Numbered from the whole stretch's first letter, positions 1,972 through 63,198 are shown. The stretch: 63,198 bases of DNA, filler included, from Hausera hauseri (GCA_046269625.1; 12 parts of 12 records of this genome joined end to end with filler, not necessarily neighbours in it); one strand, 5' to 3'. The notes: generated by a model not told the origin, from the letters alone. Made by a program: numbers and translations.

Positions 1972-2829
1972 CAGATGCTCCAGGAGTCAGCAATGAGGTT
2001 CGTTGAAATCTTTGTGTATGTTGAGATATTCGACTGTTGACAGAATCTTATTGTTGAAATAACTGATCGAGATCCTAAAGTGGATCCACGTGTCATACCA
2101 TACCGATTGTTTGTGGAGGCATTCGTACCAGGTATTGATACGAACACCGTATCATCTATATTCGAGGAACATCGAGTTTGTGAGAGTCTGAGTATGATGC
2201 ACAAGGATATTTATCAGGTTGTTACCTTATCATAGACACCACCTTAATTGACATATGTGTAGATTTGTTCTGGTGGAATATACGGTAAGAGCGAGAATTG
2301 ATTTCTATTCACAAATGTGCTCGTCGGATCCAAGGTTGAGGCTCGTTTTCGATTGGACAACCCATTCAAGGTTCCCTGTGAAATCGGACTGAGTTTAAAA
2401 CCCCTTCAAAGTGGCAGAAGTTCAGTCGGAGGTCGTGGGTCGGCATCAAAAAGTGACATATTCGAAGTTGAACCCGTAAAAGCTCAAGTTGAACCGAGAA
2501 GTTTCCTCTACATCACTGTGGTATTCAGTCCAATTTCTATGCAGGTACCCCAATGGAAATCAATGAGAATAATTTATCTCATTTTCATTCAGCAATATTT
2601 ATCTGTACTCGAATGTGTGATCGAAGGACTACCATCGAATAGCCCGTATAAATCTAAGGCATTATCCTTTGAAATTTGCGGCGAAGGATATTTACCAAGA
2701 ATCAGTGTTGTGAAACCAACTCTTCGCAACAAGAAAGGACAATATCTTTGTTTGTTCAAACGATCATTGATTGGTCGTTCACAAAGTCGAGAGATAGAAT
2801 TGTACAATAATGGGGCGTTGCCTTGTAGA
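1972..2829 (+). pseudogene. HYDIN: HYDIN (axonemal central-pair protein) internal fragment, 3 exons, with in-frame stops
   Basis: Spliced translation includes ITDRDP..PYRLFVEAFVPG..IFEEH / FLFTNVLVG..ARFRLDNP..FEVEP..FSPISMQ / LSFEICGEGYLPRISVVKPTLRNKKG..LFKRSLIG..LYNNG. GT-AG introns lie at 2218-2262 (45 nt) and 2545-2592 (48 nt), with a further donor at 2830. TGA stops fall near 2038 and 2299. Confidence 0.8.
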
Positions 2830-3484
2830 GTTAGTGAAATTTTGAATATGTCGTCTAAAATACCAAAAATATCATAATGAAACATGGGGTAATTCCGTGA
2901 AATAAAAATGTTGCCAAATTCATGGCCAACTAGGCAGGGGGTGAGTCAAAATTACGTAATGGAGTTTGTTCTGATAGTAAATGATGATGATTTGACTAAC
3001 AATTTCATTCAACCTTCAGATAATAAATCATTTCAAAACGCCGTCATATATTTATTGATTATAGGTTAAACATAAATCTATCATATTAACTGGTCATAGA
3101 ACACAGTTTATCAATTCCTTATTTGTCAACTGATATCGGATGCATATATACAATTATAAGGACGGCCATCAACGTGTATGTTGAATTGTTTTGTTAATGG
3201 GGATTTTGGTCATAAATTTGACAATCTATACTTTGATCTCACTGCTAATCAGAGTTTTACAAGTTCTTCAAGTACAAAATTTTATGATCATTAATAATAT
3301 GAAAAATATTTTTTTAAACAAAGCTCACATCATGCAATATACGCTTCTTAATGTTACGTCATTTCGTACTTCTTCAATTTTCCCCTTAACATGCAAATTT
3401 TCGTTTATTTTTCCAACTAATATTTTATAAATGGATATTTATTATGTCGACAAAACATCAACAAAACACCTTTAGTCAAATAAG

Positions 3485-10830: not shown

Positions 10831-13800
10831 TGGAGTTAAATAATAAGCTGAACTGTAATCAGTCCATGAGCATGTAGATAATTGAGTATACAAGACAATA
10901 ATAAAGTGGGCAGATGTAAATTTAAATTGATTACTATTGATAATGACCTTTGACTTCATACTTCATTAACATTTTGAATTTTATACGTTTCATTTCATTA
11001 CAAATGTTGTATGATATTTTAATAACACTTGGTCAATTATATTTGGATACATACATGGAATCACATGCCATCATACAAATCAGAACAATATCCTGAAAAA
11101 CATTGACACCTTTTATTCGACTACAAATAGCATCGGATTCAGATCTTCGAGATTCGTTTTTAATTGCTGAAAAGCTTATTAAAGCTATTATAAAAATTTT
11201 GCCGTCTACAACGTTTCAAGAAAAAACCGAATTGACTACAATGTGGAAAAAAATTATTTGCTAAGCTCTGATAATTCAAATGCCAATGATTGATCACATT
11301 CAATTGGTTTTCACTCATTTTATTTCAGATATCGATAATCTTTTTAAGTGTGTGAAACAAAATGCTGTGTTCTGAGTACAAGAAAACAAACTTGACTGTT
11401 TTACACTTTAGATGACTAATATGAAACATGTAAATAAAAAAATTGAAAAAATCAGTTTCGGTTTCAAAAAAAGCCAATCCGACATTTTACAGATCACAAT
11501 CTTGCGAATATCTCGATCACAACCCTATTGATATTTCATCCAGGTCAGAGTTAGTGCAACTTACAGAATTTCTCGACGTTGAAATCTCGCGTGCAATTCA
11601 AATTTATTCTCCGAGGCATTATTAGCATTTTGCAGTCAGGTCTGTTGTTTGTTTATTAAAACGTTCAGTTCTCATTTACATTTTGTAAGATACTCTATTG
11701 AGTCATTTTTGAAGCATTTGATCGTTAATTCCACGTGAGCATTGTGAAGTGAAATATTTTCTTTAATTCTCAGTCGCTTTGTTTTTCTGGTGTTTGAGGA
11801 GTTTTGATGCAAAACAAGAATTTTCATCATTTGTATAGATTTTTGCTGCCAGAACTTTGATTCAAACTAATCCATTATAGAAATTTCGGGAACAGTTGCT
11901 AAATTTGCTCATACAGAACGATCAGTTTACCCTCATCAACATATCAGCTACATATTCTGGTATTTAACAACTTTTTCTGTTCGGCATACATACATTACGA
12001 ATATTACAGCACAGTGACTTTTGTACATCTCATTTGATTGATGTGATTATCCATTTCGTTTTTCTTGTAACATTTTGAAGCGTCTACGTGAATTGCGTTA
12101 ATTCTGAATTAATTCAGTTTCCTGTATCATTCTGAATTGGTAAAATTTTTTTTGAATTCGAATTTTTGTTTACCATATTGACTATTTAATCTTCAATTTT
12201 CGTTCACATAGTTTAGCTAAAGCTTTTGGGCGGTTTTCAAATAATGAAACGAAAGACAAAATCCAAAGAATCAATGTCTGAATATGGGATTTCAGAGTGC
12301 CCAGTCCGTATTGAAGGAATTGTTAAAGATTTTATTCCAACTCATGATAAATATTACTGGGACACGATTTCTAGTCTTGTTTTGTCGCGTTTCGAAATGT
12401 TTTTTGATTCCTTGCATGTTCAGAAACTTGAAAGATTTATTGCAAAGCTAGTGGATAATTTTGGGCTGACATGCCAGGGACTGATCTCACTCATTAAGAA
12501 AGAATTGGTTCCTGAACGAGCTAGGCCTTTGCGACGAGAAATTGATTTATATCTACTAAACGATTGCAGTGAAAAACCTGCTTATTGAGTATTTTCTTAC
12601 AATTGGAAATCATGGTAGCAGTGAGTTTACCATATTTAATAACGAAACATTGACAAAACCCAATATTGCACCTGCTCTTATCACAAATTTACCAATGACG
12701 TTTCATATTAATTCTTCCGATCTCACCAACGCATTTAAGATGATTTTTATCGAATGTATAGAAAATTGTGATTCAGCCATTTTGAAAAATGAGCAGGATA
12801 TACTTGAATACGTTATGGACTCAATATGAGCTAAGATCAGTATTCTGCCTATTCGTGTTCATGAGGAAAATGCTGCTACCGGAAAGCCAAAAGTAACTTG
12901 GGCACGCTGCGGACCCAGTACGCTTTATTCAACAGGGCGACACTGAGACATTTAACAATAATTAATAGGTGGTATATTACTATTACTGGGTGTTAATTCA
13001 ATTTGATAATTAGTTGTTATAACATTAATGAGTATTACCTTTATGGGCATGTCCGAATGATACGAATTTTCCTGACACTATTTATCGAATTCGGATTTAA
13101 CGTCGCACTGTTGATAATTACGTACTTGATCCGCGACGTGACCAGGTGCACGCATTGTTACTTTTGGCATTCTGGTAACGTTATTCGCCTCATAATCACG
13201 AATGAGCTGAATATTGATATTGGCCAATGTATTATCAATGGCATAATCAAGTATATCCTGCTTGTTTTCCAAAATCGTTGAATCGCTATTTTTTATCAAT
13301 TAAATAAGTCTTCTCAAACGTGTTTAGGAAATTCATGATATTTGAGGCCAACGTATTAAATAGATAATTCAATATGAATACATCAGAAACTAGGTCATTA
13401 TACCATCCAAAAAGAAATGCCATTGATATAAATCCATAAGATGATAGTAAAATATCATAACATTGCATCAGTTGACGAAATATAATTTTTTGTTGTTAAT
13501 AGTGTAATTTCTCTATGTAATAAAGATCCCTGAGAATTAACTGGCGTAGTAAAAATAGAGTAGAGTACTTGGACTCAAATATTCCTCATAAATATATTTT
13601 GAACTAAGAAATTCGTCAATATGGGGGAAAGATTTAAGTTAGACATAAAATGTGCTTTATTAAAACAATCAACGATTTTTCTCAAACGCATAAAACACGT
13701 CACAACAAAGGATAAAAAAGGGGCCAGGAAATCCGGCAACATTTCAGCATGTCAAAATACAAATATACCACACGTGCTAAATATTGTGCAGAACATTAAA

Positions 13801-16715: not shown

Positions 16716-18554
16716 CAAAATGACCACCACATAAGATTCCAAATGGGTTAAATTCAGAGGCGTACTGACACTTTCGCCAACTGGGGCGAGGTAGCCTTCC
16801 AAATTTACCCAATAACGTTTACATTTGTTAAAAAGCAAACGTTTACAGGAGTTTCAGCTCACTACGGCAAGGATTGTGTTCATTTGGCTGACTGATGTTT
16901 CTTATCAGTAAGATCAGAAAGAGACAAACATCTATGATTGGCCATATTTTAAGCTCTGGAGAACTTGCTCACCACGGGCAAAGTACCAGGAAGTAGAAGC
17001 AATGGACGACACAGAATGAAGTGTTTGGTTGGTTTGAAAGAATGGCTCGGAAGTAGGTCAAGAGCAGAGATGATTGGGACACCAGGAATCGCGAGAAATG
17101 GAGATCCATGACAGCCTACCTTCGAGGATGCTACCCGATGATGATGATGCTATGACCACGAGGTTTTCGTGCAACAAATAAACACGTAGGAAGCACACAA
17201 CTGGAAACACACTGCACTTACCATCTAAAGTAAATCCTTCAGCTGCTAATTCCCGTGTGCTTATCCCACAAATCATGCGATTGTTTCCGAAAGTGGAATG
17301 ACGCCTTTCTTCTGTCATGAAGATTCCTGTAGGTAAAGCGATCCTGTCATCCTCGCAAAATGCTTCTGACAAACTCCTGCCTGGCTTCAGTTTTACAACA
17401 GATTCCAGCTCAGATTTTGATTCTTGATGAGAATGCTCGGAGGTATGTGTGTTCTGGTCCCTGCTAGCAGGTGTACATGGTTCAAGTGACTGTGAACTAG
17501 AGGCTGCCATTCCTGTTTTAAACCTATTTCTATTTTAACAAGATCAGTTTTTCTTGGAATATGTTGCTAGTCAAATGTTACTCCCTGAAATGTTTATTAT
17601 TGTACAGCTCTTCATATTATTAGTAAGATGTCAGAGCTGGTGTGTTTTTTTTTAATTAGTTAGATTATGTTTGAGGAAATATCTACGAAATCCCCAAGAC
17701 AACAGTTTTAGAGCTATTGGATTTACACTATATGTCACACGCCTATTCTTGTGTTGGATTGAAACAGTCTGTACCTGCTATGCTCTCTTATTTATGCACT
17801 TAATCGTATTACATTTTTTAGCCCACTCAGTCCCAGTGTTAGTATTCAATGTTTCACGTGACCTGAATGTTTGCCTCTTGTGCCCTGCTCTCTCTTTTGA
17901 GTGTGGTTAAAAGGGTCCTGCAGTATAAATTCTGAAACTCAAGTGGCTGTCAGCATTTACAAACCGATCAGCTTTATGAAACTGGGTGTAACAAACTATC
18001 GACATACATTGTAAAAACTGGAAAATTTACAAATTTGTAAAAAGTGCTAATTAAAAAAAAATGTTCACATTGACTTTACGTATGACAGTCTTTCTACTAT
18101 CTTGAAAACTACTAGAGTGTTCGACGAGGTAGTTAGCAATCAATCCATATCACACGGTGCGCTCGGTTTGTTAATTGTTCAATGTCTCATTCTTACATTA
18201 TCTGCTGGAAGTCTCATTGACTTGGAAAGACTGATGGTTACCCGATGGTCAAAATGGAACCGCACTGGCTTGTGAATTCGGGAATGAACGTTTTAAATTG
18301 TTTATCTTACACGCTCTTAAATCTCTATCTCATCTGTACTCTGTGCTTGGTTACAACTTTTCTTGTCTTCTGTTATGTCTTTTCTACACCTTTTCTAAAC
18401 TTGTTTAAATATTATTGTAGATTTTTTAATCTTATAAAATTAATGATCAGCTGTATATAGTTGAAGAAATACAAACAACAACAACAAAATAAAAACTCCA
18501 GCAGAAAACGTAAATAACAAAATGAAACATATATTCGATAACTTTACTGAAATG

Positions 18555-19974
18555 CAGTGGCGAAGCATGGAATGTTTCAAAGTGTTAGCGTATTACATTA
18601 TTTGTCCAATGTTAACCCATAGATTAAGAACAGTTTTTACCAGAGGATCTTGAAGAAAAAATTCCAATGCTTTCACCAGGATTTGAAATTATTTAACTAT
18701 ATAACTTGAATTAAGAAATAGTTTACCCCTGTCCTCTTGTGGTTTAAACTTCTTAAAGGAAATGAGTGACTAAATAACTTCTATGACTCAGTCCCACCTT
18801 TCCCCATAATAATTTTTAAATACCTAAGCAACAGTAAGTACACATCCGTTCGTCTAAACTCCGACCTGTCAACGGTCGGCGAACTGCTAACAATGTATAC
18901 ACTTCGGCAGTTAATTTTAAGAATAAACATTTTACGGGAATGACTGATAATCACAACAATACCCTAGCGCCCTCCCCTTCAGTGTTAGCAGACAAGAAGT
19001 GTGATTTCGTAGGCTAGCAGTAGGGCTGAAAACAAAGCTTTTTTTTCCTTTTGAAATTGAATGCTGCTTGCCGTAAAATTCTCATCGTTTACAAGAGTTT
19101 TTAAATTTAATTTTTTACATTTAACATTATATATTACGCTCATCTTTTTTCCTTTTTGTAAGCATTGCTAACGCTGTGAACACGGGGGCCTCGCTACCGC
19201 TGAAATGTTCAGCATAAATCCACTTAAATAGACTTAAACGAAGAGAGGCATATACAAAGTGACAGAGAAAGACAGACTGACAGAGAGATGTTTGAATTGT
19301 TAAACGCGTCAACTTTATTTCTACACTTACTTGCGCCTCCATGTTCACAAATTTAGCAATGCTGACAAAAAGTAAAAATAGGAAAATAATATATAATGTC
19401 AAACATAAAAAACTAAATTAAAACAATCTTGTAAACGACGAGAATTTTACGGCCAGTAGCTCTCCACTGAAAAAGGAAAAAAAAAAGCATTGCTGTTAGC
19501 CCGTGTCAGCACTTCTCCCTCGCCCCTTTCTATCAACGTTAGCATGTTAACTTGGATGCGGTGGTGTGCTGTGGGTATTATTGTGATTATCGCTCATTCC
19601 CGTGACGTGTTTCCTTTATAAAAGTAGCTGCCCGCAGTTAACTCAATGTTAGCGAGCTTAGGAAATGCTTACAGGTCAAAGTTCAGTTCAATGCTTGCTG
19701 CGTTTAAAAATTATCACGAGGGAAAGGTGTGACTGCATTATAGGAGTTACTTGGTCCCTCATTTCTTTCAAGAAGTTTAGACCAGAAGAGGACATAGGTA
19801 AACTATTTCTTAATTTAAGTAATATAATAAAATATTTTCAAATCCTGGTGAAAGTACTGGAAATTTTTTTTCTTCTCGATACTCCAGTAAAATCTGTCCT
19901 TTGATCTATGAGTGTGACATTGGACAAACAATGTAATGTGCTAACACTTTGAAAAACTCCACGCTCCGCCACTG
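18555..19974. mobile_element. ~1.4-kb non-autonomous foldback DNA transposon with CAGTGGCG termini (hAT-like)
   Basis: The left arm from 18555 aligns to the reverse complement of the right arm ending at 19974 over most of the element. Examples are ctttcaccaggatttgaaa, aattaagaaatagtttacc and gccgtaaaattctc.tcgtttacaaga. The 8-nt flanks match only 5/8. Confidence 0.85.
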
Positions 19975-20364
19975 CTTACTTGCAATACATGTTGTCATCA
20001 AACAGTGCATGGATCTTGCATATGTGTGTACATTAATAACATGTGGCCAAACAAAAATCAGAAAACATCTGTTTCACATATCATATCACACACTACCATT
20101 TCTGTTAATTTCTTCTAATTTCATTCTAACCTCTAAATTACACTGGGCTAATGATTTATTTTTCAGAAGAGTACTTACAATCACATCCCATAACTGTTTA
20201 TATTCATTTGTCCTGGTTTAAGCATACGGTTCTTTAAATAAAACGGAATTGTTTTAAGGAAAGGAAAGAATCACTAATGACAGTTTTTTTTTAAATGTGT
20301 CGTAATACACAGTGCTTGGAGAGAATTCCGGGGTGCTATATTATCCCTCTGCCATCTGTGCTTA

Positions 20365-21497: not shown

Positions 21498-22344
21498 ATC
21501 TCGAACCATCAGAAGATATCTAGCACTGATGAATTTGAAGAGTCATATGGCTGTAAGAAAGCCATTTGTAAATGCATGGCAATTACTCAGGCATATTAAT
21601 TGTGCAATAGCTTATCTCCAAAAGCAAATGTGCTTTTGAAAAATACTTTGTTTATAGATGGGTGTTCCATTCCACTTTTCAGTTGTGGAAACGAGTATAC
21701 AGAGGCCCTAATGAGACTTTCTTACCACAGCATTTCCGATCCACGGTAAGTCATGACGGATCTGTTATGGTATTGGGATCGTTTTTCTACAAAGGTGTAG
21801 GACAAATGAGGATTCTTGAGCCCGGATGCAGAATGAATTCTGCTTGGTATTGTTCAATCCTACAAAAGGAGGTGTCTAACACCTTGGAGGAACATTCAGG
21901 TGGGTCTGCCAGGGCTAATTTTCAAGATGACGGGGCACTCGGCCATTGATCCCTGTTGGTGAGGAGAAAGTGCCGACAGCTTGGAATTTCGCAAATACTT
22001 TGGCCAGGGCAAAGCTCCGATTGTAATCCGATTGAGAATATGTGGTCATTCCTCAAAACCAAGGTGCAAGCGCATTGTTCACGAATTTTGAATGAACTGA
22101 ACTCAGCGATTCTATGTGTGCGGTCTCACAAGATTCCACTATGATATTGCTAGGGCCTTGTAAATTCCATGCCTTCTCGATTGAAACTCGTCGTCCAGCG
22201 ACAAGGCTTCCCAATAAAGTATTAGGCATTTGTACCATTCTTTATTCATTACTTAAAGATTTGCTTGTTTGGTGGCTTAAATTTTCTGAAATTACAGAAA
22301 ACTTGCATTTTGGCTTGATGTTCTTAATTTAATGTCCGGCACTG
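21498..22344 (+). mobile_element. Tc1-like transposon, 3' part with degenerate DDE transposase and right TIR
   Basis: SRTIRRYL..RKPF / TVSHDGSVMVLG.F..KGVG / FQDDGALGH / WPGQSSDCNPIENMWSFLK. The element ends ...AATGTCCGGCACTG followed by TA (22345-22346). Confidence 0.9.
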
Positions 22345-22346
22345 TA

Positions 22347-22420
22347 AATTTCGATGATTGATCCCGCATCAATTAGTGCACAGACTTCCCAGACGTCAAT
22401 ATAAATTTTAGTGAAGGCCT
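22347..22420 (-). pseudogene. Retropepsin-like aspartic protease N-terminus, truncated by the Tc1 insertion
   Basis: GRP[frameshift]FTKIYIDVWEVCALIDAGSIIEI. The DAG codons GAT GCG GGA (22362-22370) are one transition from DTG. Confidence 0.6.
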
Positions 22421-22789: not shown

Positions 22790-24581
22790 TTCGTATGCTT
22801 TAAGTATTTTACCAAACGGTATGATAATTGCTGTTAAAATGTTACAGGAAAATTCTGTTAGCGTGAATATTTCGTACCCATTTATAACCGCTTTAATTAC
22901 CAGATGTAGCTTGTTCAAAAATTAAAAATCTTCCCCATATTTTGTAGAGTATTTCTGTGGTTACCCGTTGGTAATGGTTCTCACCAAGCAAGGATTCCTA
23001 TTTAGCCTAATATCGGGTATCGTCTACTACTGATGCCAAGACTCGGTTTAATTGGTGTGTTTGCTGTCGTGCAAAAGCAAGAAATTGTCGAAAAGCTTTG
23101 ACCTCTTTTGGTCGATAAATGTTTTTTGAAACGTATCTTGGAACTTGTCGTCAGTAATGCCTTTTGCTAAATTAGTTCCAGTTAGTTTTTTTAGGAATAA
23201 TAGTGACACTTCCATTGGGTAAGCTAACCCAATCCGTTTCGCTACGCCTAAACATCGGTTCACCCAAACTTGCTTTGTAATCCTTTAATATTGTAGGTTG
23301 TGTTGCGTTGTCTAGCAATACTATAGTGAGAGGCATGGCTAATCGTGGAGTGTTTTGGTGGATTACAGGTAACTCTTGTATACATCGCTTTTCTTCAACC
23401 TTAATTGGTACATCGCTTTTCTCGCATTCATAAGTTAGTAGAACTTCACCAGTAACTCGACCAAAAATTCCTTCTCTCATGGGAATGATCGGTGATGCTA
23501 ACTCCGAATTCTCATAAATAAGAGCTAATTTTGTTCTCATAATTTCCGTATCCAGCTTGCAGTCATTAGTTATCATTTTGTGGTATAGTTCGACTATTCC
23601 GACTTGTCCTTTATAATAAAAATAATCGTTTCGGTTTTTCAGATAGTCTTCGATTCGAATGTTTTGCGTTTCTAGGTTGTATGTTTTTGCGTTTATCTCC
23701 GTTTCTGCGACGAAAAACGCTTCGTAATTAGTGGTGAACATTACTACTTCACATCTTGAAATCATTTCCTTTCTGATGAATTTCAATCAATGTTGGTCAG
23801 GGACTAATATCGTAGGTGTATAATGCTCTGATACGTCTTCACGTGCTCTTGAACTGATGTCGGATTTATCTACGTATGGTTTCTCGGTAGTTTCCTTAAA
23901 TTTCAATTCTTTGATCTTAATAAATTTACAGGCTTTCCCGGTAGGCGGTTCCCATATGACGACAGAACTTCTGAAGGCAGAAGTTCCGTCTTGCATGTGA
24001 CATTTTTGATTCTCAGTATATAACTTAGTGATGCTATGGAACATTACTTTTTGGACTCGAATCTTGGATTCGTAAAAGTCTACTACTACTACATTTACTT
24101 CCAATCCTTTTCCGGTATCGTATTCCGTTCCAATACAGTGCCCGTTATTCATATTTAGCCTTCCGGCTACAATCTTATACGCTCTGATTATTTTTCCGGG
24201 CTGCATTTCTAATTCCATGCTATCGCATTTCAGTCTTCCGGTTTCTCGGGCTTGCTTACAATGTTGTCTTTCCACATATATTGGAATTGAAAGGGTTGTT
24301 GGTTTGATTAATGAGAAATGTCCGTGCATCAGTCCACAATGGAAGATGCTACAAGATCTTCTCAGCATACATCCCATGCCATCCAAAGATATCAACTCTT
24401 GTTGTTGGTATAGAAAATAGGTCTTCTCTTTTGTTTCCAGTTTATGTGGTCTGGCATCTTCACATGCTTCTAAGTCCATTAATGAATACTTTTGTCCAAG
24501 TTTGAATCTATCACAATCGTAAACGGTAACAGCACCCATTTGTTTTATTAACATCATTATGGTGAGCAAACTGATTAACCA
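22790..24581 (-). pseudogene. Chuvirus/Jingchuvirales-type fusion glycoprotein (env-like), ~600 aa, decayed
   Basis: Signal-like WLISLLTIMMLIKQMGA|VTVYDC..YSLMDLEAC, then C.L.RS.SIFHCG..H.S, C..A...G, GHCIG, VIW......C, C....TTNY, Y.....C.L, GEVLLTYEC...V......CIQELPV......P.T, PMF.....W and KIWGRF.IF...SG / INGYEIF....FS..ILTAI. This matches the cysteine and motif pattern of chuviral glycoproteins. Confidence 0.8.
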
Positions 24582-25299: not shown

Positions 25300-25525
25300 G
25301 GCTATTATTGCTATTATCCGATTTGTTTTGTCGGGAATAATTCCGACATCTATTAACTGTTCTAAATCGTCGAGTATTCTTCCGCTAAAGTAAAATCTGT
25401 AATTTAGCTCATTTGTTCCGCCATTATTTAGTAACCATTCTCTTACATCCTTTACGTAGGACTGAGTAGTTAACTCATTCTTTTTTTTCCATCCAGTCGG
25501 ATGATATCATTACTTTTATCACTAC
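25300..25525 (-). other. Ubiquitin-like domain within the retroelement polyprotein (copy 1)
   Basis: VIKVMISSDWMEK[fs]NELTTQSYVKDVREWLLNNGGTNELNYRFYFSGRILDDLEQLIDVGIIPDKTNRIIAII, compared with ubiquitin [21 protein letters not shown]. Confidence 0.65.
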
Positions 25526-28126
25526 ATCAGGTTTAGTTCTCAGAATATTCGCATACTTCTTTATCAGGACTTTTGCAACCGTGTTGTAAATTGCATTCTC
25601 ACTAGATAATTTAGTTAAGGTCTGAGCTTGTTTTCAGTCATTCACATTAATTGATTCCATCATGTCCTTCTCGGCCAATGCTAAGTCTAGGATCATCTAT
25701 ACATTGAATTTCCTGTTCTGCGGATACCTTTATATTTCTTCTAGGTTTACTGGAGTTCCCGAATTTTCGGCCGTTATTTCTTCTAAATAAGCATCCCATT
25801 CTGGTTTATTCGCAATATCTGGAAGTCCATAGTCTACTAGAGCTGTATTCGTCCTTTGGACATTTTCTCGAATTTCTCTAAATTTTGGTTGTATTTCTTT
25901 CATCTGCGTAGTTCGGAATCCTATTCCGCTTCCACAGGCATATTGAATCATTTTCAATAATTCGCCTAACTCGTTAGCATTGATAAATCTCTTTTGGTGA
26001 TAGTCGGTTAATTCCATAATTACATCTCTTTGCCATCTCTGCACAAATTATTGTTTATTTTTAATTTCTGATTCCGTAAAAGTGTATTTGTTCCGGTAGC
26101 TTTCGAATTCTTTTACTAGTTCATCTAGCCTTGTTGCTCTTTGTTTCGTTTTAATGCATGATTCTTCAACTTGTTGTAGTTTGGGAATTAATTGCCTCAT
26201 TCTTTTATCTAAGATTTCGATGTCTTGGGCAGAGATCTTATCGATTGGTTTTTCCGTTAAGTATTGGATTCCTTCTAGTCCAGCAACCTTCAACTTTGAG
26301 TTTACATCGTAAATCATGTTCCGCTTTTCCATGAAGTTCGGCTCTTCGATCAATTTATAAATCTCCAATATCGACGTTTCTTGTTTTCTTTTCATAAATT
26401 TTAGCCGTCTTAACGCTTCGAATTGGGTGCGGATATCTATTTCTATTTTCATTGTGCCTAGATCATGTGCATTTTCTTCTAGCTGATTCTTTACCATTGG
26501 TTCGCTTTGCGGAAATTCTTTTTTGCGGTCTTCTACTAACTTGCTTAGTCTGTTTACTAACTCGGACCATTCTGGCAATTGATTTCCGATAACTGGTTTC
26601 GCCATTATAGCCTTATCTAACATCTTATACGCGTTTTTTAACTCATCGTCGGGCCCTCTTAGGAAATTCATAATCCGACCGACATAACTAAACTCATCCT
26701 TATATTCGTCCAGTTCTACAATACAAGCTTTTATTACGTATTGAGTTTCCTCATGGTTTGGGAACATAATTCGGTTTCTTAAACTATTAATCTGTGATCT
26801 TTATCATTCTGCATTTTGATGCGGCTCTCTAAGTCCGCACATCAACTGTTTTCGACAAAGGCAAATTTTATCATCTCCATTAAGGGAGGAATATCTATCA
26901 GGTCTACACCCAATATCTCAAAATCGATACAACTTCGATCGCTAACCGTTTTTCCCTAAGCCGATTAATCATTGCACAGCGAATTTCATCCATCATACGT
27001 TCTAAATTACGGACTACTCTCTTCAGTTTTGGGTTTGTTTCCAAGGTAGACAGTAGTGTTTGAGCCTTAGCAACTTTCACATCAATACTATCTTCATTTT
27101 TACTCCATCCTTCTGAAAATTCTACACCACTTTTAATCCACTAGTCTAATTCGTGGTTCCATTTTGTCAACGTATCTTGTGGTACCTCTTTCGGTTGTCT
27201 TACTTCAATTGCTTCATCGAGTTTCCCTTCACTCCACAATCTTAAACTCTTGTATAATTTCTCCGCAAATTGTTGTTCCTTGCCAGATATATCTGTTTGT
27301 TTACTAATCTGCTTGAGCCTTTTCAAATTGTGTCTGAGTATTTCTGGATTGTGACATTTACTTCTCATCCTCTTTAATTCTTTAGCATTTTTTCATGAAC
27401 GTCGAACTTTCCATTTTCTCGCATCATGGTCATTATTATTGCCCGTTTCTTCTTCACTAGCGGGAAGCGGACAAATTTCGTTTATTTCCTCATTAACATT
27501 TTCCATCTCTGGAGTTTCTAACACTTCTGGAATCCCTATAGGCGCAATAGAAATCCCTGAGGGCGAGTCATCTCTTAGGATAGCAGTATGGAAATCTTTT
27601 TTTCTTCTGTATCCCTTTTAATGGGAGATTGTGAACGAGTCTTAGATTTTCACTTAGGCGATGGGCTTCTACCTCTATTCTTCGTTATATTGAGAACTAA
27701 GGGCCCAATAAATTTACTTTTGACTTCGTCTATTTTTTCATCTGGATTATGCGTCGCGGCTTCTATTTCCGTATTTAAATTTACATTTTTAGATGTCGAT
27801 GGTTTCTCCGATTGTGATATTCCTTGCGAAATAGACTTCTTACGCTCCATATTAGTATTATTTGGCGCCAATGCCCATTCTTCTTCGGTCTGTGGTTCTT
27901 TTAATCTATGATAAATTTCCATTAGTCGTAATTTCTTTTCATATTATTTTCTAGCGTTCATGACTTGAGAATTAGTAGTTTCCCTTAGATTTCTTACAGA
28001 TATGTGTAAATTTTGCATTTCGATAATCAGGCTTATATCTCCTCGTTTGCCATAGATGGCTTCCAAGTTATTCTTGATCATACTTGTTTTGTTTGGTTCA
28101 GTAAATGTGACACTTCTAGGATTTGG

Positions 28127-28168
28127 GCATGACCTAGCAATATGACCTTCTTTTTCACATGTAAAGCA
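28127..28168 (-). other. Gag CCHC zinc knuckle (copy 1)
   Basis: CFTCEKEGHIARSC, preceded by an R/N/D-rich nucleocapsid-like region. Confidence 0.95.
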
Positions 28169-29394: not shown

Positions 29395-32300
29395 ATGCAG
29401 TTTTACAAAGATCATATTGCCCATTTGGCAGAATTCAATTCAAAGCCAAAGAAGGCAATATTTAATAAGCAGCATCTTGCTGTGACAGCACAGCTAGTTG
29501 TACAGCCTGCTTTAGCAGCAAGGCCTGATGCAAGACCAAAACGCCTATCAGAAGTAGCAGCAGATGCTCAATCAAAAAGTCAAAGACAGCGGCCAGTTGA
29601 TGCAGTTGCACTGAAGAGCAAAGTTCGGCGATACTTTGTATCAGCAATGGGGCAGACATCGCTTTATGAATTCCTGCAATATTCAAAGGAGGTGGCAGCA
29701 GGAATTCTCCAGGACAACTTGTTGGAGCTGAAAGCCCTTAAGGTGAACTTTAAATTGGAAGCCACCTTCACCAATGTTAAAGGAGAGCTGTCTAATAAAA
29801 CATTCAAGACAAAGAACAGGACACTATTGAAATCCTTTAATATTAAGGATTTAATTACTGAGGACTATGCAAGGCTCATTCGCAAAGCCGAAGAAGGCCA
29901 GGACAAGAAGAGTGATGGGACTTTAGCAATAATAAATGGGTTACTTGTGCATGTGCAAAAGTATTCTCCCATGAGAGACAGGGTACTACATACCGCTTCC
30001 TGAATGGATAGTTAAGAAAAAGGCATGTATCCGTGTCCATAATAATGACAACATGTGTTTCATGTATGCCATTTTATCAAAACTAGTCCAGGATTAAAAT
30101 AATGCTTCGCGAGTTTGGATATATGACAAAGTGCAGCACACATACGACTTCAGCTGTATTTCATTCCTGCCGAATCTAGATGAAGTCGTGAAATTTGAAA
30201 GCGTGAACATCTCAATCAATATCTTACGATTGGAGGAGGAAATATTTTGTCCATTACATGTGTGCAAGGAGGAATTGGAGGATCATAGGAATCTACTCCT
30301 GCTAGATGATGGAGAAACGAGGCATTTCATCTGTATCAAGAATTTTGAGCTCCTCGTAGGATCCCAAATATTCAAGCATAAATCAAGGCTGGAAATATGC
30401 AAGAGATGCTTTTCCCATTTTAATGGGGACACAGCCGCAGAAAGGCTGGTGGAGCACAAGACTTACTCTAATACAAACCACTGCATCCGAGCAAAATTCC
30501 CCAAAAAGGATTACCTGGAATTCAAGGAGTTCGAGAAGATGCAGAAGGTGCCGATTGTCGTCTATTGTGATTTTGAGACCATTCTCAGCCAAGTTCACAG
30601 CTGCATCCCTAATCCTCAACATAGCAGCACAACAGCATACCAATATCATGAACTCTCATCATATTGTATGTATGCCAAAGGACTGGACAATGAACCATTT
30701 CTATTCAGAGGGTCCGACGCAGCAGCACATTTTATGAAGAGATTAGACGACATGGCTCATAGGCTTGAAAACATTCTTCAGCAGCATAAGGATACAATGA
30801 GCATGTCGAAGAAACAAGATGAATGGTGTAAGGCAACAAGTTAATTGTGCGACAAGTCCTTCACGAAGGATAATTATAAAGTCAGGGATCATTGCATTTT
30901 ACAGGCAAATATCGAGGTGCAGCATGCAACAACTGCAATCTACGTTGCAAAACATACACATATGTGCCTATAGTGTTCCACAATTTCAGCGGTTATGATT
31001 CCCACTTCATTGTTCGGGAACTGGGTAATATTGAGGGGAACATTAATGTCATTGCAAACAGTGAAGAAAATATATCACCTTCACTAAGCATGTGGGCCGC
31101 ATTAAACTTTGATTCATAGACAGCTTCCGCTTCATGAGCTCGTCACTGGATAGTTTAATGAAGAACCTCCCTGCAGAAGAACTCAAGGAGACGAAGTGGT
31201 TCTTCCCCACTGCATCTGACCTCGTCAAGAAAGGCGTGTTCCCCTATGACTATGTAACGTCATGGAAAGAACTGGATGAAGATGCATTACCGGCCGAGGA
31301 GGATTTCTATAGTCAGTTGTCATCCAGTCCTATTAGCGATGCTGACTATAAGCATGACCAAAGAGTATGGCAAACCTTCCAGCGCAGGACAAGAGGAGAA
31401 TACAGTGATATCTATCTCTTCACAGATGTGCTGCTACTTACAGATGTCTTCTAAAGCTTCCGGGATGTGACCCTTAAGACCCACAAGTTAGATCCAGCCC
31501 ATTTCTTTACAACTCCAGGAATGAGCTGGGCGGCGATACTGCACTATACGGGCATAAGGCTCCAGATATTGAAGGATTACAATATGGTCCTCATGGTTGA
31601 GAGAGGCATCAGGGGCGGAATCAGCCAGGCCATTCACAGCTACAGTGAGGCCAATAACAAATACATGGCAGATTATGATCCATCAAAGGAATCCTCATAT
31701 ATGTCATATCTGGATGCCAACAACTTGTATGGATGCGCAATGAGCAACCCATTGCCCTATGATAACTTCAAATGGGTCAAGAATCATGAAGACATCCCAA
31801 TATTGAACCTAGATTCCATTGGAGATACGGGCTATATACTGGAGGTGGACGTGGAATACCCACATAGCATCCACGCAAGGCATGAGCAGCTGCCATTTCT
31901 GCCGGAAAGCAGGCCTCTGCCCCATGGAAAGCATAAGAAGCTGCTCTATTACCTCGAAAACAGGGAGAGGTATGTAGTCCACTACATAAATCTCCAACAG
32001 GCCATCCAAAATGGACTCCGAGTCATCAGGATTCATCGGGCCCTGCGGTTCAGCCAGTCCACATGGCTGAATCCATACACAGACCTCAATACCCAGTTGA
32101 GGGCCAATGCCAAGAACGAGTTTGAAAAGGACCAATTCAAGCTGTATAATAACTCAGTATTTGAAAAACTATGCAGAACATCCGGAACCAGATAAACATC
32201 CAGCTGGTATGTGACTGGAAGAGAACAAAGAAACTCATCGCTAAGCCCAATTGCCACAGCTGCACAATCTACACAGAGAACTTGGTGAACATCCATATGA

Positions 32301-36260: not shown

Positions 36261-36400
36261 ACGACTACTCTTAGATAGTAAACGAAGAAACCGTTAAGAT
36301 AACGACCAGAAGAGGGACACCATACAAGTTAGGTTCGGACGACAATTTACCATTCGGGTTAGAATTTTTAAACAACTTAAGCGAAGAGGAAGAGAACGGA

Positions 36401-37105
36401 ATGGCAAGAAACGAACACAACGTAGAGCAGGTGATACAGTCAAAAGCTGACTTCACCTTGCCCATGAAGAAGTTTTCAGGAAAAGAAGACGTACAGGATT
36501 TTATCATGGAATACGAGGTATATTCAAAAAGTTTTGGATGGAATGACCAACAACGAATGGAGAGGTTACCTCTCCATTTAAAGGGAACTGCATTAACGAT
36601 TTACTTCCAGATGCCAGAAGAGGATAAAAAGGATTGGAAGACTGTCAAAGAAAAGTTACCTCAAAAATTTCTGGTAGATCCTTCTGGTAAAGGAAGGATA
36701 GAAGAATTTATACGAAGGAGGCAACGAAAAGATGAGACAGTACAGGATTTTGTCTGTGCATTGGAAAAGTTAGCCGCAAGGGCTTATCCGGATGCAGTAA
36801 TAAGAAGTAACGCGTTGTTGGCCCAATTCCAATATGGATTAGAAGCAAGGTTAAGAAGTATTATACTACAAGCTGATCCCTCCACGTTTCAAGAGGCAAT
36901 CAGGAAAGCCCGAAAAGCTGAGCGGGACGCGGAATTATATAAATGGACCAAGTCGAAAGAAAATACAAATAATTATAAACGAAAAAACAATAATAGTACT
37001 CAAAGATATCAGAGATACGATAGAAACCGAAGCCCTTCGCAAACGTCAGCTACAGAGGCTGAGTCAGATGTGGAGAAGAAGGTAAGGTTTAAGTTAAAGA
37101 ACCAT
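36401..37105 (+). CDS. Ty3/Gypsy gag (capsid) ORF, open to the contig end
   Basis: FSGKEDVQDF..YE......GW......LPLHLKGTA...F / RRQRKDETVQDF...L..LA..AYP / QF..GL...P.TF.EA...A..E. Confidence 0.9.
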
Positions 37106-38553: not shown

Positions 38554-41271
38554 TTATTTCTTTGAATTTTGCGTTTTTCTATATTTCTTATCACTATCGA
38601 AGTCTGAATCCTTGTAAACGTGTGGAGCAACTTCTGTCAACCAACGGGGCTCAATGCGCAGACAAGTTCGCATGAATTCTTTCTCCGTTTCCACTATAGT
38701 ATTATAAACTACGTATCGAGGAGAATCTCGTGGATGGTCTTCGATTATTTTGAAAACACACGTTGGATGCATGTATACGCAATCTTTTGATTTGATTCTC
38801 CGATAACAATCGCCGCTGAATCGAGCCGTATTTATAAAGAATCCGGCTGTTATGGCTTTTCTGATATTGATGGTGTTGTCCGGATCTGACGACAGTTTCA
38901 ATTCCAAACGATCAGCCAATCCAATCAGCTGGTCACGAATGTTTCTGGCCATTTTCATTGACCGTGACTGAATATAGTTTTCTTTGCACCATTCACTGGA
39001 GAACTCACTATGTGCATAGCCATTGTACACATTCAGAAGAGTCAAGTGATCACCGTCTTCGTTGAGAAATGCCCGATGAGCTTGTGATGCAAATAATTTC
39101 TTGTCTTTCGGTGAATAAAAAATCGTGTTATCCAAACTTAGCATGGCTGCGATCGTGATGATTTCCTCCGAACAATTGTACTTTTCTGATGAGATAATCA
39201 TCTTGGAAATCATAGGATCGCAGGGGATCTCTACCATTTTTCTTCCACACAATGACAATGCTCCTTTCGGATTGATAGCGCCGAGATGATATAATTCAGA
39301 CAATGCTGCGAAGATATTTCGTTCGCTGGGCCGATCGAGAAATTCAAACTGCATTATATCGTCGATACCCAAACTTTTCAGCAGTAAAACGACGTTAGAA
39401 ATATTCGTCCGTTGAATTTCCGGAATGGGTTGGTCTTCAAACTCTTCTTCAAATGTGCATTTCTTGTACAGACGAAAACATTTTCCTGGAGCAACTCGTC
39501 CAGCTCGACCAGCACGTTGAATTGATGATGCCTTCGATATCGGAATGACTTCCAGTGCGTCCATTCGAGATTTTGCATCGTAACGCTTCTGTTTGCAGTA
39601 ACCGCAGTCAATTACGTATTTGATACCGTTGATCGTAAGCGATGTTTCCGCGATATTCGTCGCTAGTACTACTTTTCGAGCACCGGGTGGCGTTGGCATG
39701 AATATTTTCGCTTGTTTCTCACTGGGCAGTGATGAATAAATCGGCAGAACAATCAATTCTCTAATCTTATTGCCAAGTGCCTTAATTCTGTCCTGAATTT
39801 CATCCATAGCTCGTTCTATTTCTTCTTGTCCGGTGACAAACACCAGTATATCTCCTTCTGGTTGTGTGATGTGAATCTGGAACACAGTTATTACTGACGC
39901 ATCAACGTAATCCGGCTCCTGATCTTTTGTGTAATAAATTTCAACGGGATATCGACGGCCGGGGATTCTGAATATCGGCCCATGGAAATAATCGGCGAAT
40001 TTCTGTGTATCGCACGTTGCCGAACTAATGATCACCTTCAGATCTTTCCGTTCCTCCATGATTTCCCGCAGTAAACCAAAAATGACATCGGTCTGCAGAG
40101 TCCGTTCATGTGCCTCGTCAATGATAAGTACCGAATAAGTACTCATCAATGGGTCAATGAGAAATTCCCTGAGCAACATTCCATCAGTCATGTATTTAAT
40201 CAGCGTATCGTCCGATACTCGCATTTCAAATCGTACTGAATAACCAACTTTATCGCCAAGTTTGACATTCATTTCTTGTGCTACTCGTGTCGAGACAGAC
40301 ATTGCAGCTACTCGTCGTGGTTGGGTACAGCCGATTTTCATGTTGTTTGCACAGAATCCTTCTTCGTAAAGGTACTGAGGAATTTGCGTCGTTTTACCCG
40401 ATCCGGTCTCTCCCTCGATTATGATTACTTGGTTCTGTCTTACCATTTCGATTAATTCATCTTTCAATTTGTATATTGGCAGGGATTTGCGGATTTCCTC
40501 AATTGTCATGTCTTTTTCCTGGAAGACTTTTTGTTTCTCTTTCCCGTCGTCGCCATCATTGTTATCCACTAAATTCACATCACCAAAGTTAATAAATTCG
40601 TCCAATAAAATATCGTATTCGATGTCACTTGTCTTCTTCGGTTTCTTCTCTCCGACACCAGTTTTCATCTGTCGGGCTTCCCACTCATTCAGTCCCCCAC
40701 GCTTCGATCTATCCTTTTTCTTTTCATCCCCATAATCATTTAGAATTGTCGACTCATTCGAAGGCATCGTGTAGTATTTTTCCTTCGTTGATTTGATTCC
40801 TTCTTGCTGCAGTTTTGCAACCCTCAGCAATAATTTCTTCGTTTCCCGATCATCTTCTTCTCGTTTCGTCAATTTGTCATTTTTAAAATAAATATCTTCT
40901 TCTTTCAGTTCTTGTTCCAAATCTTCCAGTTTGTCAATCCGTCGTTTGTCCAAATATTCGAAACGAGATTTCTTACGCAGTTCTGTGGTTATTACGTCCT
41001 TTTCGGCATTTTTCGACAACAATGTGCGATTTCGCTTTTCATCAGTGTAACTGGGAACGTACGATTTGGATTTTGCTTTATCTTTGCTTGTAATTTTTTT
41101 ATCAAATTCTTTTACCTTCTCGGATTCTTCTCTGTTTCGCTTTTCTTCGGCAATGTAATCGTCATCCAAATTCCCAGTGTCGTATTTTCGTTTCCTAAAT
41201 AAAAGTAATGAAATATTGAAAATAAAGAATGATTTAACTTACGTATATCTTTTTTCGTTATATTCGTTCAT
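38554..41271 (-). CDS. DHX16: Pre-mRNA splicing DEAH-box helicase DHX16/Prp2; exons 41271-41243 and 41194-38554 (~890 aa)
   Basis: Helicase motifs are GETGSGKTTQIPQYL, TQPRRVAAMSV, DEAHERT, SAT, LATNIAETSLTI and QRAGRAGR. The DHX16-type N-region reads RKKSRFEYL.KR...KLEDLE. A 48-nt GTAAGT..TTTAG intron (41242-41195) joins ATG 41271 in frame. Confidence 0.92.
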
Positions 41272-59120: not shown

Positions 59121-62100
59121 AACTTTTCTTTTTTGTTTCTAATTTGTGTGGTCTCGCGTTTTCGCACATTTCTAAGTCCATTAATGAGTATTTTTGGCCA
59201 AGTCTAAATTTGTCACAATCATATACTGTAACTGCACCCATCTGTCTTATTAACATCATCAAGGTCAAAAAGTTGATTAGCCAGTTCGATTCATTTCCTC
59301 TGTGATTTCCGGTTACATTTCGTAGCAGATCTTCGAATCTATTGTTACCCAAGATGAATCTACTTTGATGTTATTCTTCTTTTTCGAATAACTTCGACCA
59401 GTTCACTTCCCAAGGTAGTCTTCTTATAGCCCTCCTTGCCAAGCTAGTGGCCTTCTTGAATTCATTTTCTCGGTTTGGGTTAGTTTTGATGGCCAGATAT
59501 AGCAACACTTTTCTTAATTCTTTCATGCTATTTTCCGCCATAATTCTCTCAATCACCACTTCATCGCTTAAGGTACTTCTGGATAATTTACACCGAAAAC
59601 CCTTCATGGCCTTGGCGGCATTAGATATGGCCTTCTCTTTTTCGTCTAATATATCAGCGCCGAGACTAGAGTGGTTTACTAGTCGTATCAAATTTCTCAT
59701 AAGTTCGAACAGTTCCTCATTATCCGCACTGAAGGTTGGTATGGACATTTGCCTCAACTCTTTGATTAGGTCTCCATTATAGTCGATTTCTTCTCGTGTC
59801 TTCCGTGGTCTACCGACAGGACGCTTCGGTTTTGTTACAATGGGTACACTGCCATTGATAGGTACTAAATTTTTATCGTATTGCTCATTATCTTCGTCTG
59901 TCTGCAGGTACTCAAAATATACTGTCGCATCTCGGACTCCTACTATTCGTCCTACCCACTGTTCTGCTTTAGCCTTCCTTATAGCCTCCTCCTTTGTTTC
60001 GTCGATAGTAATGATTACCACTACCCAGTTTACTTCAACTGGAATAATTCCGACTTCTATTCATAATTCCTATTCATCTAGTATCCTTCCTCTAAAATAA
60101 AGTCTATAGCTCAGCTCATGGGCGTATCCGTTGCTCTTTATCCACACTAATACATCTCTTATAAGGGAACGCGTAGTGAACTCTTGTTCCTTCTCGTCCA
60201 TTCAATCAGATGTTATCTTTACTCGGATCGTCTCCTCTGCCTTTGCCTTTAAGATTTTAGCATATTCTTTGAGTAAAAGCTTAGGTGCCGTACTATAAAT
60301 CGTACCTTCGCTAGCCAGTTTAGTTAGTGAGGTTTACTTCAATCAACTTAATTAAATCTTTCTCGGTTTGTGCTGGGTCCAGAAGAATTCCTACATAGAA
60401 TCTTTGGTCCGAAAAATATACCTCCATTTCATCCAATCGTATGGGAGTTTTCGGATTCTCGGCCATCATTGCGTCTAAATATGCCTGCTATTCTGGTTCG
60501 TTTTCCTCATTCGGCAGTTAATAGCCCCTTGACGGTATATCAGTTGGTCCACCCACACCTGCAATCTGTATGGTTTTTCTGAGTTCTTGTAGCTTCTGTT
60601 GCAATTGGACCATATTCGTCGTTCGGAAACAGTGCCAATTAGCAGAAGTTTGGTGTAGCAATGTTAACAACGAACATAATTCTTCAGCCGGGATCAGTCC
60701 TTGTTCTTGATAGCCTGTTAGTTCGGAAGTGACATCTCTTTGCCACCTTTGCACAAATTGTGACTTGTCAGCCCTTTTTGCTTCTGTAAGGGCGTATTTA
60801 TTTTTATAGACTTCGAGTTCTCTAGTTAGTTCGTCTAATCTCATCGCTGTCTGTTTGGTCTTAATGCAAGTTTCTTCGACTTTCTGTATCTGCTGAAACA
60901 ATTGCCTTAATTTCTCGTCACTAATTTCTGCCATTTCCGCCATCAATAGTGTTAATTCATACATCTCGTTAATTCTTTTCGAATCTGGATCTATCGCATC
61001 TAGTAACTTTTTTACAAATTTGGTTTCTTCAAAGCTAAGGTGGTGGTCGTTCTTTATTTTAATGAGCTCAGTGTTATGCCTTTAATATGTTCCTTCCATC
61101 CATCCTTGTGGATGGTGTAAGAGCTTCACCATTTCTTCAACGACTGACCGATATTCGGGACAAAAGTCCAAGGTTTTAAGATCTCGAATCGAGATTTCCT
61201 CGATAGGCTTGGCTGTCAAATGTTGGATTCCTTTTAGGCGGATATCTCTTAATCTCGGATAGAAATCGCAAGTCGCATTCCATTTCCGCATGAAGTTTGT
61301 TTCTTCGATCATCTTATATCCATAAAGCCCAATTGACGCAATGCCTCGAATTGAGTTCGGATGTCAATTTCTGCTTTCAAAGTGTCTAGATTTCTGGCGT
61401 CTTCTTCTAATCGCTTCTTTACTGTAGGTTCGCTCTCCGAAAATTCTTTTTTTCGACTATTTATTAATTTACTCAACCTTGTTATTACTTTGGATCATTC
61501 GTTCAACTGATTAGCGATTTCTGGTTTTGCCCATATGGCCTTGTCTAACTTTGTGTGAGCGTCCCACTTTTCATTCAGACTCCCAGTTCGCGTTTCCATT
61601 TGACTAGTGTTTCTTTTGTCACTTCCTCAGGTTGATCTAAGTCTATAGCTTTGCTTAGTTTCCCTTCACTATATAATTTCATCTTTTTATATAATCTCTC
61701 TACAAACTGTTGTTCATTGCCAGAAATATCCACTTGTTCACTTATTGCTTTGAGTTTCTCTAGATTCTGTTGGACTACCTTTGGGTTGAGACAATTTATC
61801 CTTATTCTTTTTAATTCGTCGGCATTTTTCCACGAGCGTCTGATTTTCCAGTTTTTAGGGTCGAGTTTCTCCTTTTGTTCTGTTTCCTCTTCGCTATTAA
61901 GTAATGGACATATATCGTTTATTTTGTTTACAGATTTCGTTAGCTCATCCGTTTCGCCGGACGTAACTAAATTAATTTCTGGAGTGTCTAAAGCGAATTC
62001 TGTGTCGTTCCCCAACGCGATTTCAGTCTCTCTCCTTGTCTCTGATTTCTCCTTGATCATTGGGGATCTCAAACGATCCTTACGTTTCCGTCTCAATGAT

Positions 62101-63198
62101 GGACTACGACCTCTATTCTTGGTAATTTTGAATATTAGGGGTTCCAAAAATTCTTTTTCTTCGTCGATCTCTGTCTTTTTGCTTACCCTTTTCATCATAT
62201 GTTCTGGTTCTACATCTAAATCTACTTCATCCGGGATCTCAGGTTTTCCTGTTTCGTCTAACTATTTGCTTGTCGTAGGAATGTTCTTTTTCCGCGCTAA
62301 ATTAGTAAGACTTGGTGGTGCAATGGAGCATTCATATTCCGTTTCCGGTTCACACAAGCCATGGTAAACTTCCAGTAATCGTAATTTATGTTCATACTCG
62401 TTTCTGGCTTCTAAGACTTTAGGATCTTTAGTATCAGGTTGGGCCTTCAAAAAACGTCGCAAGTCCTGCATCTTAATAATCATACCTATGTCCTTACGGA
62501 CACCATAAATTGCTTCTAAGTTTTCGTTTTTAATTACACTAGTTTTGCTAGGTTCCACAAACGAGAAACTTCGCGGATTTGGACAGGATCTCGCTATATG
62601 TCCTTCTTTTCCACATGTATAACAAATTAAGTTGACATTTCTATCGACCCTTTGCCGACCATCCTCATTTAACGGAGATTTCGATCTACTCGGGCTTCTA
62701 TTATAACCTTGATGTGACGGGAGTTGCCTAGGGTCTCCATATTGGTGATTATCGTAATTTCGGCTGTCATTCTGTCGATTTCCATTATTAAAATTTTTGG
62801 AGCCATCTGGACGTTTATCCGTATGATAGTTTGATTTACTAGAAGAACTATTTCAACTGTTATCACAATTCTGACTATTATACGATTGTTTCTGCGATCA
62901 TAATGCACGTTCTTGTTCCGATCCCCATAATTCTTATTAAACCGTCGATCATTTTTGTCGCCCCGATTTCGATCGCCCCGATCATTATCTCTATCGTTTC
63001 TGTCACCGTCTCTGGCATATTTATCCAATGCCATTTCTAAGTTCTGAGCTAATTGCAATGCTCGGTCAAAGTTCTCTGGTCTGGCCAGGATCAGTTGCTT
63101 GACTATATCTTTAGACCAAATACCATTTATTAACTGCGTCATCATCATGACGTCCAGATCTGGAGGACTTGTCTTTTCTGCGGCTTCACATTCTGCTT
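59121..63198 (-). mobile_element. Copy 2 of the gag/UBL/AT-hook/chuvirus-glycoprotein retroelement (truncated by both edges)
   Basis: Contains Gag QLINGI....VKQLILARPENFDRALQLAQNLE, CCHC CYTCGKEGHIARSC (62583-62624), UBL ~60010-60232, AT-hook KRPVGRPRK ~59797-59832 and glycoprotein start MGAVTVYDCDKFRLGQKYSLMDLEMC. It is collinear with 24430-28476. Confidence 0.85.

Follow-up and report, generated by a model that had tools for sequence, protein, structure and literature searches.

Did the broken Gag-to-glycoprotein sequence that occurs twice in a stretch of Hausera hauseri DNA descend from a single continuous open reading frame (ORF)? The stretch (63,198 nucleotides from GCA_046269625.1; hereafter, the window) consists of 12 short contigs chained by 11 N...TTAATTAATTAA...N linkers, and sequences on either side of a linker are not physically linked. 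Copy 1 occupies the contig at 21498-28476 and copy 2 the contig at 59121-63198, both on the minus strand. Copy 2 is truncated inside Gag by the end of the window, and at its other edge the contig ends after approximately 56 codons of signal and glycoprotein. The alignment of the copies runs from the Gag tract up to where the glycoprotein starts, with 67-78% nucleotide identity in local blocks and approximately 67% overall. The domain order is Gag, CCHC zinc knuckle, long helical spacer, likely ubiquitin-like domain (Ubl), AT-hook, helical domain, signal, class III glycoprotein of the PF24664 family (here, G), and a weak protease (PR) remnant. We consider it very probable that both copies are dead and decayed independently, that they come from two old subfamilies of a Burro-like Ty3/gypsy element with a high copy number, and that the active form was likely one polyprotein comprising Gag, spacer, Env, and likely Pol. 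We base this on coding constraint, the absence of a common stop or phase switch, lesions that are not family-wide, relatives with a single ORF, the placement of G among polyprotein-borne glycoproteins, and ORF1 of the Burro elements.

Coding constraint and private lesions

We compared codons of the two copies in 21 gap-free alignment blocks of at least 29 nt (shorter blocks were excluded, and the phase was picked per block by score), giving 1067 codons. The mismatch frequencies at the three codon positions were 0.30, 0.21, and 0.53. The proportion of synonymous differences (pS) was 0.72 and that of nonsynonymous differences (pN) was 0.24, for a pN/pS of 0.33 (bootstrap 0.30-0.37), whereas the two shifted phases gave 1.01 and 1.34, with 90-119 stops each. 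Correction yields a dN/dS of 0.12, a rough figure given that synonymous sites are near saturation. The pN/pS was below 0.5 in each of six sub-regions. These values are not near 1, and they bear out a sequence-only reading of this DNA, which had described many differences between the copies as synonymous or conservative.

In all 12 gap-free blocks of at least 120 nt, one phase was best in every 72-nt window; therefore, no frameshift is common to both copies inside the aligned blocks. Within the 1067 aligned codons, copy 1 has 13 stops and copy 2 has 8, none of them common to both (chance expectation 13 x 8 / 1067, or approximately 0.1). The absence of a common stop rules out a conserved stop, yet it is expected under independent decay and is not improbable by itself. 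Counting all frames, stops occur in 22 of 1841 codons in copy 1 and 11 of 1335 in copy 2, from which the per-site change since the death of each copy comes to roughly 9% and 6%, respectively. Because the stops are private and synonymous sites are nearly saturated, the copies are members of two old subfamilies that decayed separately, not recent duplicates.

At the junction into the glycoprotein, the lesions are complementary, as had been proposed: the stop of copy 1 at 24590-24588 faces open sequence in copy 2, and the stop of copy 2 at 59373-59371 faces open sequence in copy 1. In both copies the CCHC knuckle runs in frame into the spacer, each with private stops. Two length differences were also correctly noted. 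Copy 2 lacks approximately 0.5 kb that is present in copy 1 (~26624-27126), and it carries 249 extra in-frame bases, or 83 codons with one stop inside, at approximately 60910-61166. The extra codons appear as a 249-nt alignment offset, have no other match in the window, and are overlapped by a 412-nt contig from a public sequencing run (X1) that spans 60940-61319.

The complementarity does not extend to the 0.5-kb segment. Copy 2 shifts frame at the deletion (~61560), and copy 1 shifts frame twice within the segment (~26950 and ~26790). At the segment edge the copies have stops in neighbouring codons (27143 in copy 1, 61577 in copy 2), which are not the same codon. A codon-usage model trained outside the segment found a coding-like signal throughout, without a gap, with the best frame changing twice. 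The proposal that the ancestor was one continuous ORF is therefore upheld in part: the 1067 aligned codons contain no common stop or shift, but the 0.5-kb segment is broken in both copies, and we infer that the frame continued across it.

We estimated the extent of the family from run X1, which contains half of copy 2's sampled words and which, as possibly the source sample itself, does not count as independent. In this run, 6824 contigs lie on copy 2 at 80% identity or more, covering 30 of 30 bins; 331 of them are at 99% or above, 825 at 95-99%, 2352 at 90-95%, and 3316 below 90%. Summed depth ranged from 458 to 45,217 per bin, compared to approximately 5-25 for single listed contigs; this sum is not a copy number. 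The family has many copies. Copy 2 has four frame changes, and at three of them (62882, 61319, and 60326) some contigs carry extra letters; these three lesions are therefore not shared by the whole family. Among the contig joints listed, the deletion junction was absent (46 further joints lay outside the list).

Domain layout and single-ORF relatives

An exhaustive protein search with the copy 1 glycoprotein returned 339 proteins at E <= 0.001, of which 17 reached E <= 1e-30; we scanned all 17 with Pfam. An aspartic protease follows G in frame in 11 of the 17, and 5 of the 17 continue into reverse transcriptase (RT) and RNase H (RH). Gag or a CCHC knuckle precedes G in frame in 6 of the 17, 4 of them by Pfam (CCHC or Retrotrans_gag) and 2 by CCHC pattern (12 of the 17 were pattern-scanned). 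P0004 and P0015 each hold CCHC-G-PR-RT-RH-integrase (IN) in one ORF, and P0151 (4844 aa) holds G-PR-ankyrin-RT-RH-IN. In P0012, Gag (Arc2-like, E 0.007) and CCHC are accompanied by weak matches to ubiquitin and Bcl-2 and by G; its alignment with copy 2 shows a common order of CCHC, Ubl, AT-hook, helical domain, signal, and G. Natural relatives thus hold Gag/CCHC, G, and protease in one uninterrupted ORF. Together with the pN/pS and the 6824 contigs, this sustains the earlier view of a replicated family under coding constraint, as opposed to a chimaera or misassembly. Word-indexed protein searches found no match among 2520 candidates for G or among 198 for the pre-G junction; none of 103 pattern matches to copy 1 G in metagenome contigs, and not the single pattern match to P0012 in viral contigs, was confirmed.

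We placed the copy 1 glycoprotein in a quick tree of 39 rows, with Shimodaira-Hasegawa-like approximate likelihood ratio test (SH-aLRT) support only, no bootstrap, and a thorough search unfinished. It lies inside the clade of polyprotein-borne glycoproteins (SH-aLRT 99), in a Ubl/Bcl-2-bearing subclade with P0012, P0013, P0002, P0004, P0005, and P0006 (96), and separate from the Chuviridae glycoprotein P0041 and the BEL-type glycoprotein P0044. The nearest relatives of G (the same six and P0151) are 25-31% identical to it, and P0012 shares the domain order up to G. The natural polyproteins differ from the window copies in their shorter CCHC-to-G spacer (~230-625 aa) and clearer Bcl-2-like domain (P0005, P0012, P0002). 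By eye, P0001, P0004, P0010, and P0151 have hundreds of residues beyond the integrase with further hydrophobic signal- or anchor-like segments, and P0001, P0006, and P0151 have several protease-like repeats; a second membrane protein in the same ORF of the natural polyproteins is possible.

In copy 2, the C-terminal end of the Gag capsid and then an R/D/N-rich low-complexity tract occupy 62900-63198 (relatives' Gag profile weak, E 0.0094 among 24 frames; no Pfam match). The CCHC knuckle follows at 62577-62624 (PF00098, E 3.9e-7). In copy 1 the knuckle is at 28121-28168 (E 1.7e-5), with a frame change just upstream, near 28200. The copy 1 signal and glycoprotein, a class III fusion protein of chuvirus/mononegavirus or HSV/gB type (HSV, herpes simplex virus) with stops, span 22884-24575 (PF24664, E 7e-41), with a frame change near the membrane anchor (~22900). 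In both copies, a CCHC-bearing Gag therefore lies upstream of a glycoprotein of this type. The signal and the C-terminal anchor are hydrophobic segments in copy 1; the signal, at 24578, has a Kyte-Doolittle score of 1.83, and the copy 2 equivalent falls under the 1.7 cut. In copy 2 the signal-like segment (59236-59285) was recognized by inspection and aligned with the equivalent segment of relatives. It precedes the glycoprotein N-terminus at 59121-59235, which is ended by the contig edge, is matched by tblastn with relatives, and has 82% amino acid identity to copy 1 over 56 codons (pN/pS 0.13).

Between knuckle and signal, copy 2 has a long, partly coiled-coil spacer (60330-62576; pN/pS 0.29-0.47 by sub-region) with weak coiled-coil-type Pfam matches alone. 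Besides the deletion, its frame changes lie at approximately 61319 and 60330-60360, two sites at which run X1 contigs have the extra letters. The sequence-only reading had called the region after the knuckle unknown. That description fits the first ~700 codons, for which we found no homologue in Pfam scans or in the ESM Atlas with the copy 1 spacer ORF, but most of the remainder and of the layout has already been described in Burro elements. The last third comprises the likely Ubl, an AT-hook-like motif, and the helical domain.

The putative Ubl lies at 59990-60240 in copy 2, with three stops (relatives' hidden Markov model [HMM], E 0.015), and at 25300-25520 in copy 1, with a frame change near 25478 (Pfam ubiquitin, E 0.038; relatives' HMM, E 2.3e-5). 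A profile of the two copies matched the relatives' Ubl with an hhalign probability of 64 (E 6e-5), compared to 0.3 or less for five controls. In a comparison of the copy 1 Ubl with PDB sequences, 7 of 8 matches were ubiquitin chains, at a single-domain score of just 1.8 bits, and no confident structural model was obtained. Overall, these data give moderate support to a ubiquitin-like domain before Env, and we consider its presence likely. The AT-hook-like motif is at 59791-59826 in copy 2 and near 25105 in copy 1 (PF02178, E 0.16, below cut-off), and 5 of the 13 relatives scanned have a GRP[KR] motif before G.

The all-helical domain of copy 2 (59374-59760) occupies the Bcl-2-like position of the relatives and Burro. 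The relatives' domains match Bcl-2 in Pfam at E 0.001 (P0005), 0.055 (P0012), and 0.2 (P0002), and the P0005 region matches Bcl-xL at E 0.01. Our first model of the copy 2 domain had a predicted local distance difference test score (pLDDT) of 61, the best of five (others 41-43), with four relative rows misaligned onto G. It matched generic helical bundles alone (best Z 8.6, root-mean-square deviation 3.3, 88 aligned; no Foldseek match at E <= 0.001); Bcl-2 was not among the structural matches listed, which leaves room for a Bcl-2 fold. A second model reached a pLDDT of 41. A Bcl-2-like HMM built from four relatives had no match in the window copies, the Bcl-2 matches of a further alignment (A3; E 0.27-2.5) stem mainly from the relatives' motif, and the ESM Atlas gave no usable match for the Ubl-helical part of P0012. 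The Bcl-2-like label for the window copies is positional only.

Known elements and rival explanations

Burro/GYPSM1 elements are giant gypsy-like long terminal repeat (LTR) retrotransposons of planarians (PMC6431247, citing Grohme 2018 and Jurka 2007). The passages on them in PMC6431247 describe an ORF1 with Gag, Smc, Ubl, BCL2, mononegavirus-like env, and PR in one frame, as well as decayed copies with stops and frameshifts in Dugesia japonica; the Gag-Ubl-Bcl2-Env-Pol layout has thus been in print since 2019. By these descriptions, the window copies resemble Burro in their CCHC Gag, coiled-coil region, likely ubiquitin/SUMO-like domain, mononegavirus-like G (likely in frame) between gag and a probable protease remnant, high copy number, and decay. 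They differ in having one CCHC knuckle where PMC6431247 gives two or three, in the AT-hook-like motif, and in a helical domain without the demonstrable Bcl-2 signature of Burro. The Burro features MATH, BIR, ankyrin, and dUTPase had no Pfam match in the scanned pieces here, which are decayed and partial. Burro exceeds 25 kb and has LTRs and Pol, whereas the copies here are known from contigs that end in coding sequence.

Chary and Hayashi (PMC13524379) describe GAG-ENV-POL errantiviruses with HSV/gB-type Env in Nematoda, Bryozoa, and Platyhelminthes, with 10 bryozoan and 9 flatworm GAG-ENV-POL rows in supplementary file 1. Going by those passages, the window copies share the Ty3/gypsy-type Gag, the chuvirus-like class III glycoprotein, and, likely, the gag-env-pol order. 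The published elements are intact and classified by Pol, whereas the copies here have no Pol on their contigs; Ubl, Bcl-2, and in-frame fusion are not described in the passages on the published elements. Anakin elements (PMC7642597) are a case of the same glycoprotein family captured by an LTR element, but on a BEL/Pao backbone as described there. We rejected membership in Anakin, given that G here stands after Gag and before a protease remnant and groups apart from the glycoprotein of P0044, which comes after an integrase-associated DUF5641 domain, and likewise in Troyka, which, as presented in PMC12440569, has no envelope and a different knuckle. By description and domain order, the element would have worked like Burro and the GAG-ENV-POL elements.

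Several observations weigh against a single Gag-Env-Pol polyprotein. Between approximately 26624 and 27143 both copies are broken, and an ORF boundary there is compatible with them. The distance from CCHC to G is 1132 and 1214 codons, about twice that of the longest CCHC-bearing relative (~625), with no spacer homologue found. The copy 1 glycoprotein sits on a long branch of its quick, non-bootstrapped tree. The relatives' Bcl-2-like profile matched the window copies with an hhalign probability of 0.8, no better than controls, and the relatives' W-x-x-x-x-GGW (BH2-type) motif is absent from them. In copy 1, the sequence following G (22302-22415) that is probably a remnant of the aspartic protease N-terminus, with a decayed catalytic motif, is weakly matched, at E 0.023 as the best of 24 frames for the relatives' protease HMM, without a Pfam match. 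Both contigs end inside coding sequence, and neither is linked to an RT, an integrase, or an LTR. Where Pol would continue in copy 1, we found a Tc1/mariner-type DDE transposase remnant on the plus strand (21929-22072; PF13358 DDE_3, E 8.4e-6, below cut-off).

The break in the 0.5-kb segment would fit a two-ORF element, with Gag and part of the spacer ending there and spacer-Env-Pol made by programmed frameshift, by readthrough, or from a separate ORF. Both copies break there, copy 1 by two changes of frame, their stops fall in neighbouring codons, and P0001, P0002, P0003, P0005, P0010, and P0151 begin between Gag and G; these starts may be artefacts of start calling or decay, proteins alone having been compared. 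However, the two stops are in different codons, coding-like codon usage runs through the whole segment without a gap, and six relatives, like Burro, have CCHC/Gag and G in one ORF, so we regard a two-ORF form as unlikely. The lack of a physically linked Pol and the weak protease signal would suit a Gag-Env unit that lacked Pol from the outset, either a non-autonomous element or a domesticated gene. We consider this very unlikely, given that the protease remnant is at the expected place and strand and that PR follows G in 11 of the 17 close relatives; a domesticated gene, moreover, would not be broken at 6-9% per site or occur in thousands of contigs. Because the window is a fragmented assembly and PF24664 also covers chuvirus and BEL-borne glycoproteins, one might suspect an Anakin-type BEL/Pao element, or else a gypsy gag and an endogenised chuvirus glycoprotein brought together as a chimaera by chance or by misassembly. 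This is largely refuted and hardly credible: the order is identical in two copies approximately 33% diverged under purifying selection, G groups apart from Chuviridae and the DUF5641-G protein, the copies have a single CX2CX4HX4C knuckle, and the relatives' Gag fits an Arc2/Ty3-type capsid.

Neighbouring sequences and implications

Other contigs in the window carry further coding remnants. A stop-free Ty3-type capsid ORF (36275-37105, plus strand; PF19259), cut by a contig end, is 43% identical to the P0012 Gag (E 6e-47); it is distant from the copy 2 Gag and is possibly the 5' end of another Gag-Env-Pol subfamily. On the contig at 55037-59020 (plus strand), a decayed gypsy-type Pol with RT, RNase H, and integrase is succeeded by a polypurine run near 58605 and by what is likely the start of an LTR. 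We did not count it as the Pol of the element: it is on another contig and strand, and its identity to the RT/RNase H of the relatives is 29-38%. At 31455-32195 (plus strand), a fragment of a protein-primed type B DNA polymerase (PF03175) is likely of Polinton/Maverick type, and diverged long inverted repeats at 18554-19975 (73% over 661 nt) and 12747-13307 (65% over 582 nt) are likely old foldback or DNA-transposon remnants. An ORF at 2302-2877 (plus strand) with a weak Ig-like CFAP65/Cep192 match (E 0.0007) is likely a host exon. At 38554-41238 (minus strand) lies an intronless, 894-codon DHX16/Prp2-type helicase, whose nearest sequence is a Logan protein at 74%. Its best full-length matches include neodermatan flatworms (60-62%, barely above molluscs), and in a tree it falls outside the neodermatans on a very long branch, which points to a fast-evolving invertebrate host.

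If the ancestor was a single polyprotein with Pol downstream, we can propose how it may have functioned. Cleavage, topology, and particle formation are here drawn from what is generally known about signal peptides and retroelement proteases, and the signal was called from hydrophobicity, not with a signal-peptide predictor. Gag-CCHC, spacer, Ubl, AT-hook, and helical domain would be synthesized in the cytosol. As an internal signal, the hydrophobic segment would then thread the class III glycoprotein into the endoplasmic reticulum (ER), where signal peptidase would release it, and the C-terminal anchor would bring the chain back to the cytosol, so that the ER membrane would be crossed twice. 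A cytosolic protease would cut out Gag and RT/RNase H/integrase, giving an enveloped, potentially infectious particle with fixed Gag:Env:Pol ratios.

A further interpretation, which we put forward tentatively and consider rather doubtful, is that the copies represent a separate, once very abundant single-ORF Gag-Env-Pol lineage in a non-planarian host. It would carry approximately 700 aa of accessory sequence without a known homologue and a captured Bcl-2 domain that drifted to a fold plus tail anchor, the tail now serving as the internal signal peptide of Env. If this were true, the particle would be retrovirus-like, and its polyprotein would pass through the ER membrane twice, after the pattern of flaviviruses or alphaviruses.

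The single-frame Gag-accessory-Env-Pol design is a real architecture, widespread and under selection, rather than an accident of assembly. Given that the layout is already known, these copies add a divergent lineage with a long uncharacterised spacer; they widen the range of the layout and bring no new mechanism. The threading and cutting of the polyprotein, and the roles of Ubl and Bcl-2, are better studied in the intact natural relatives.

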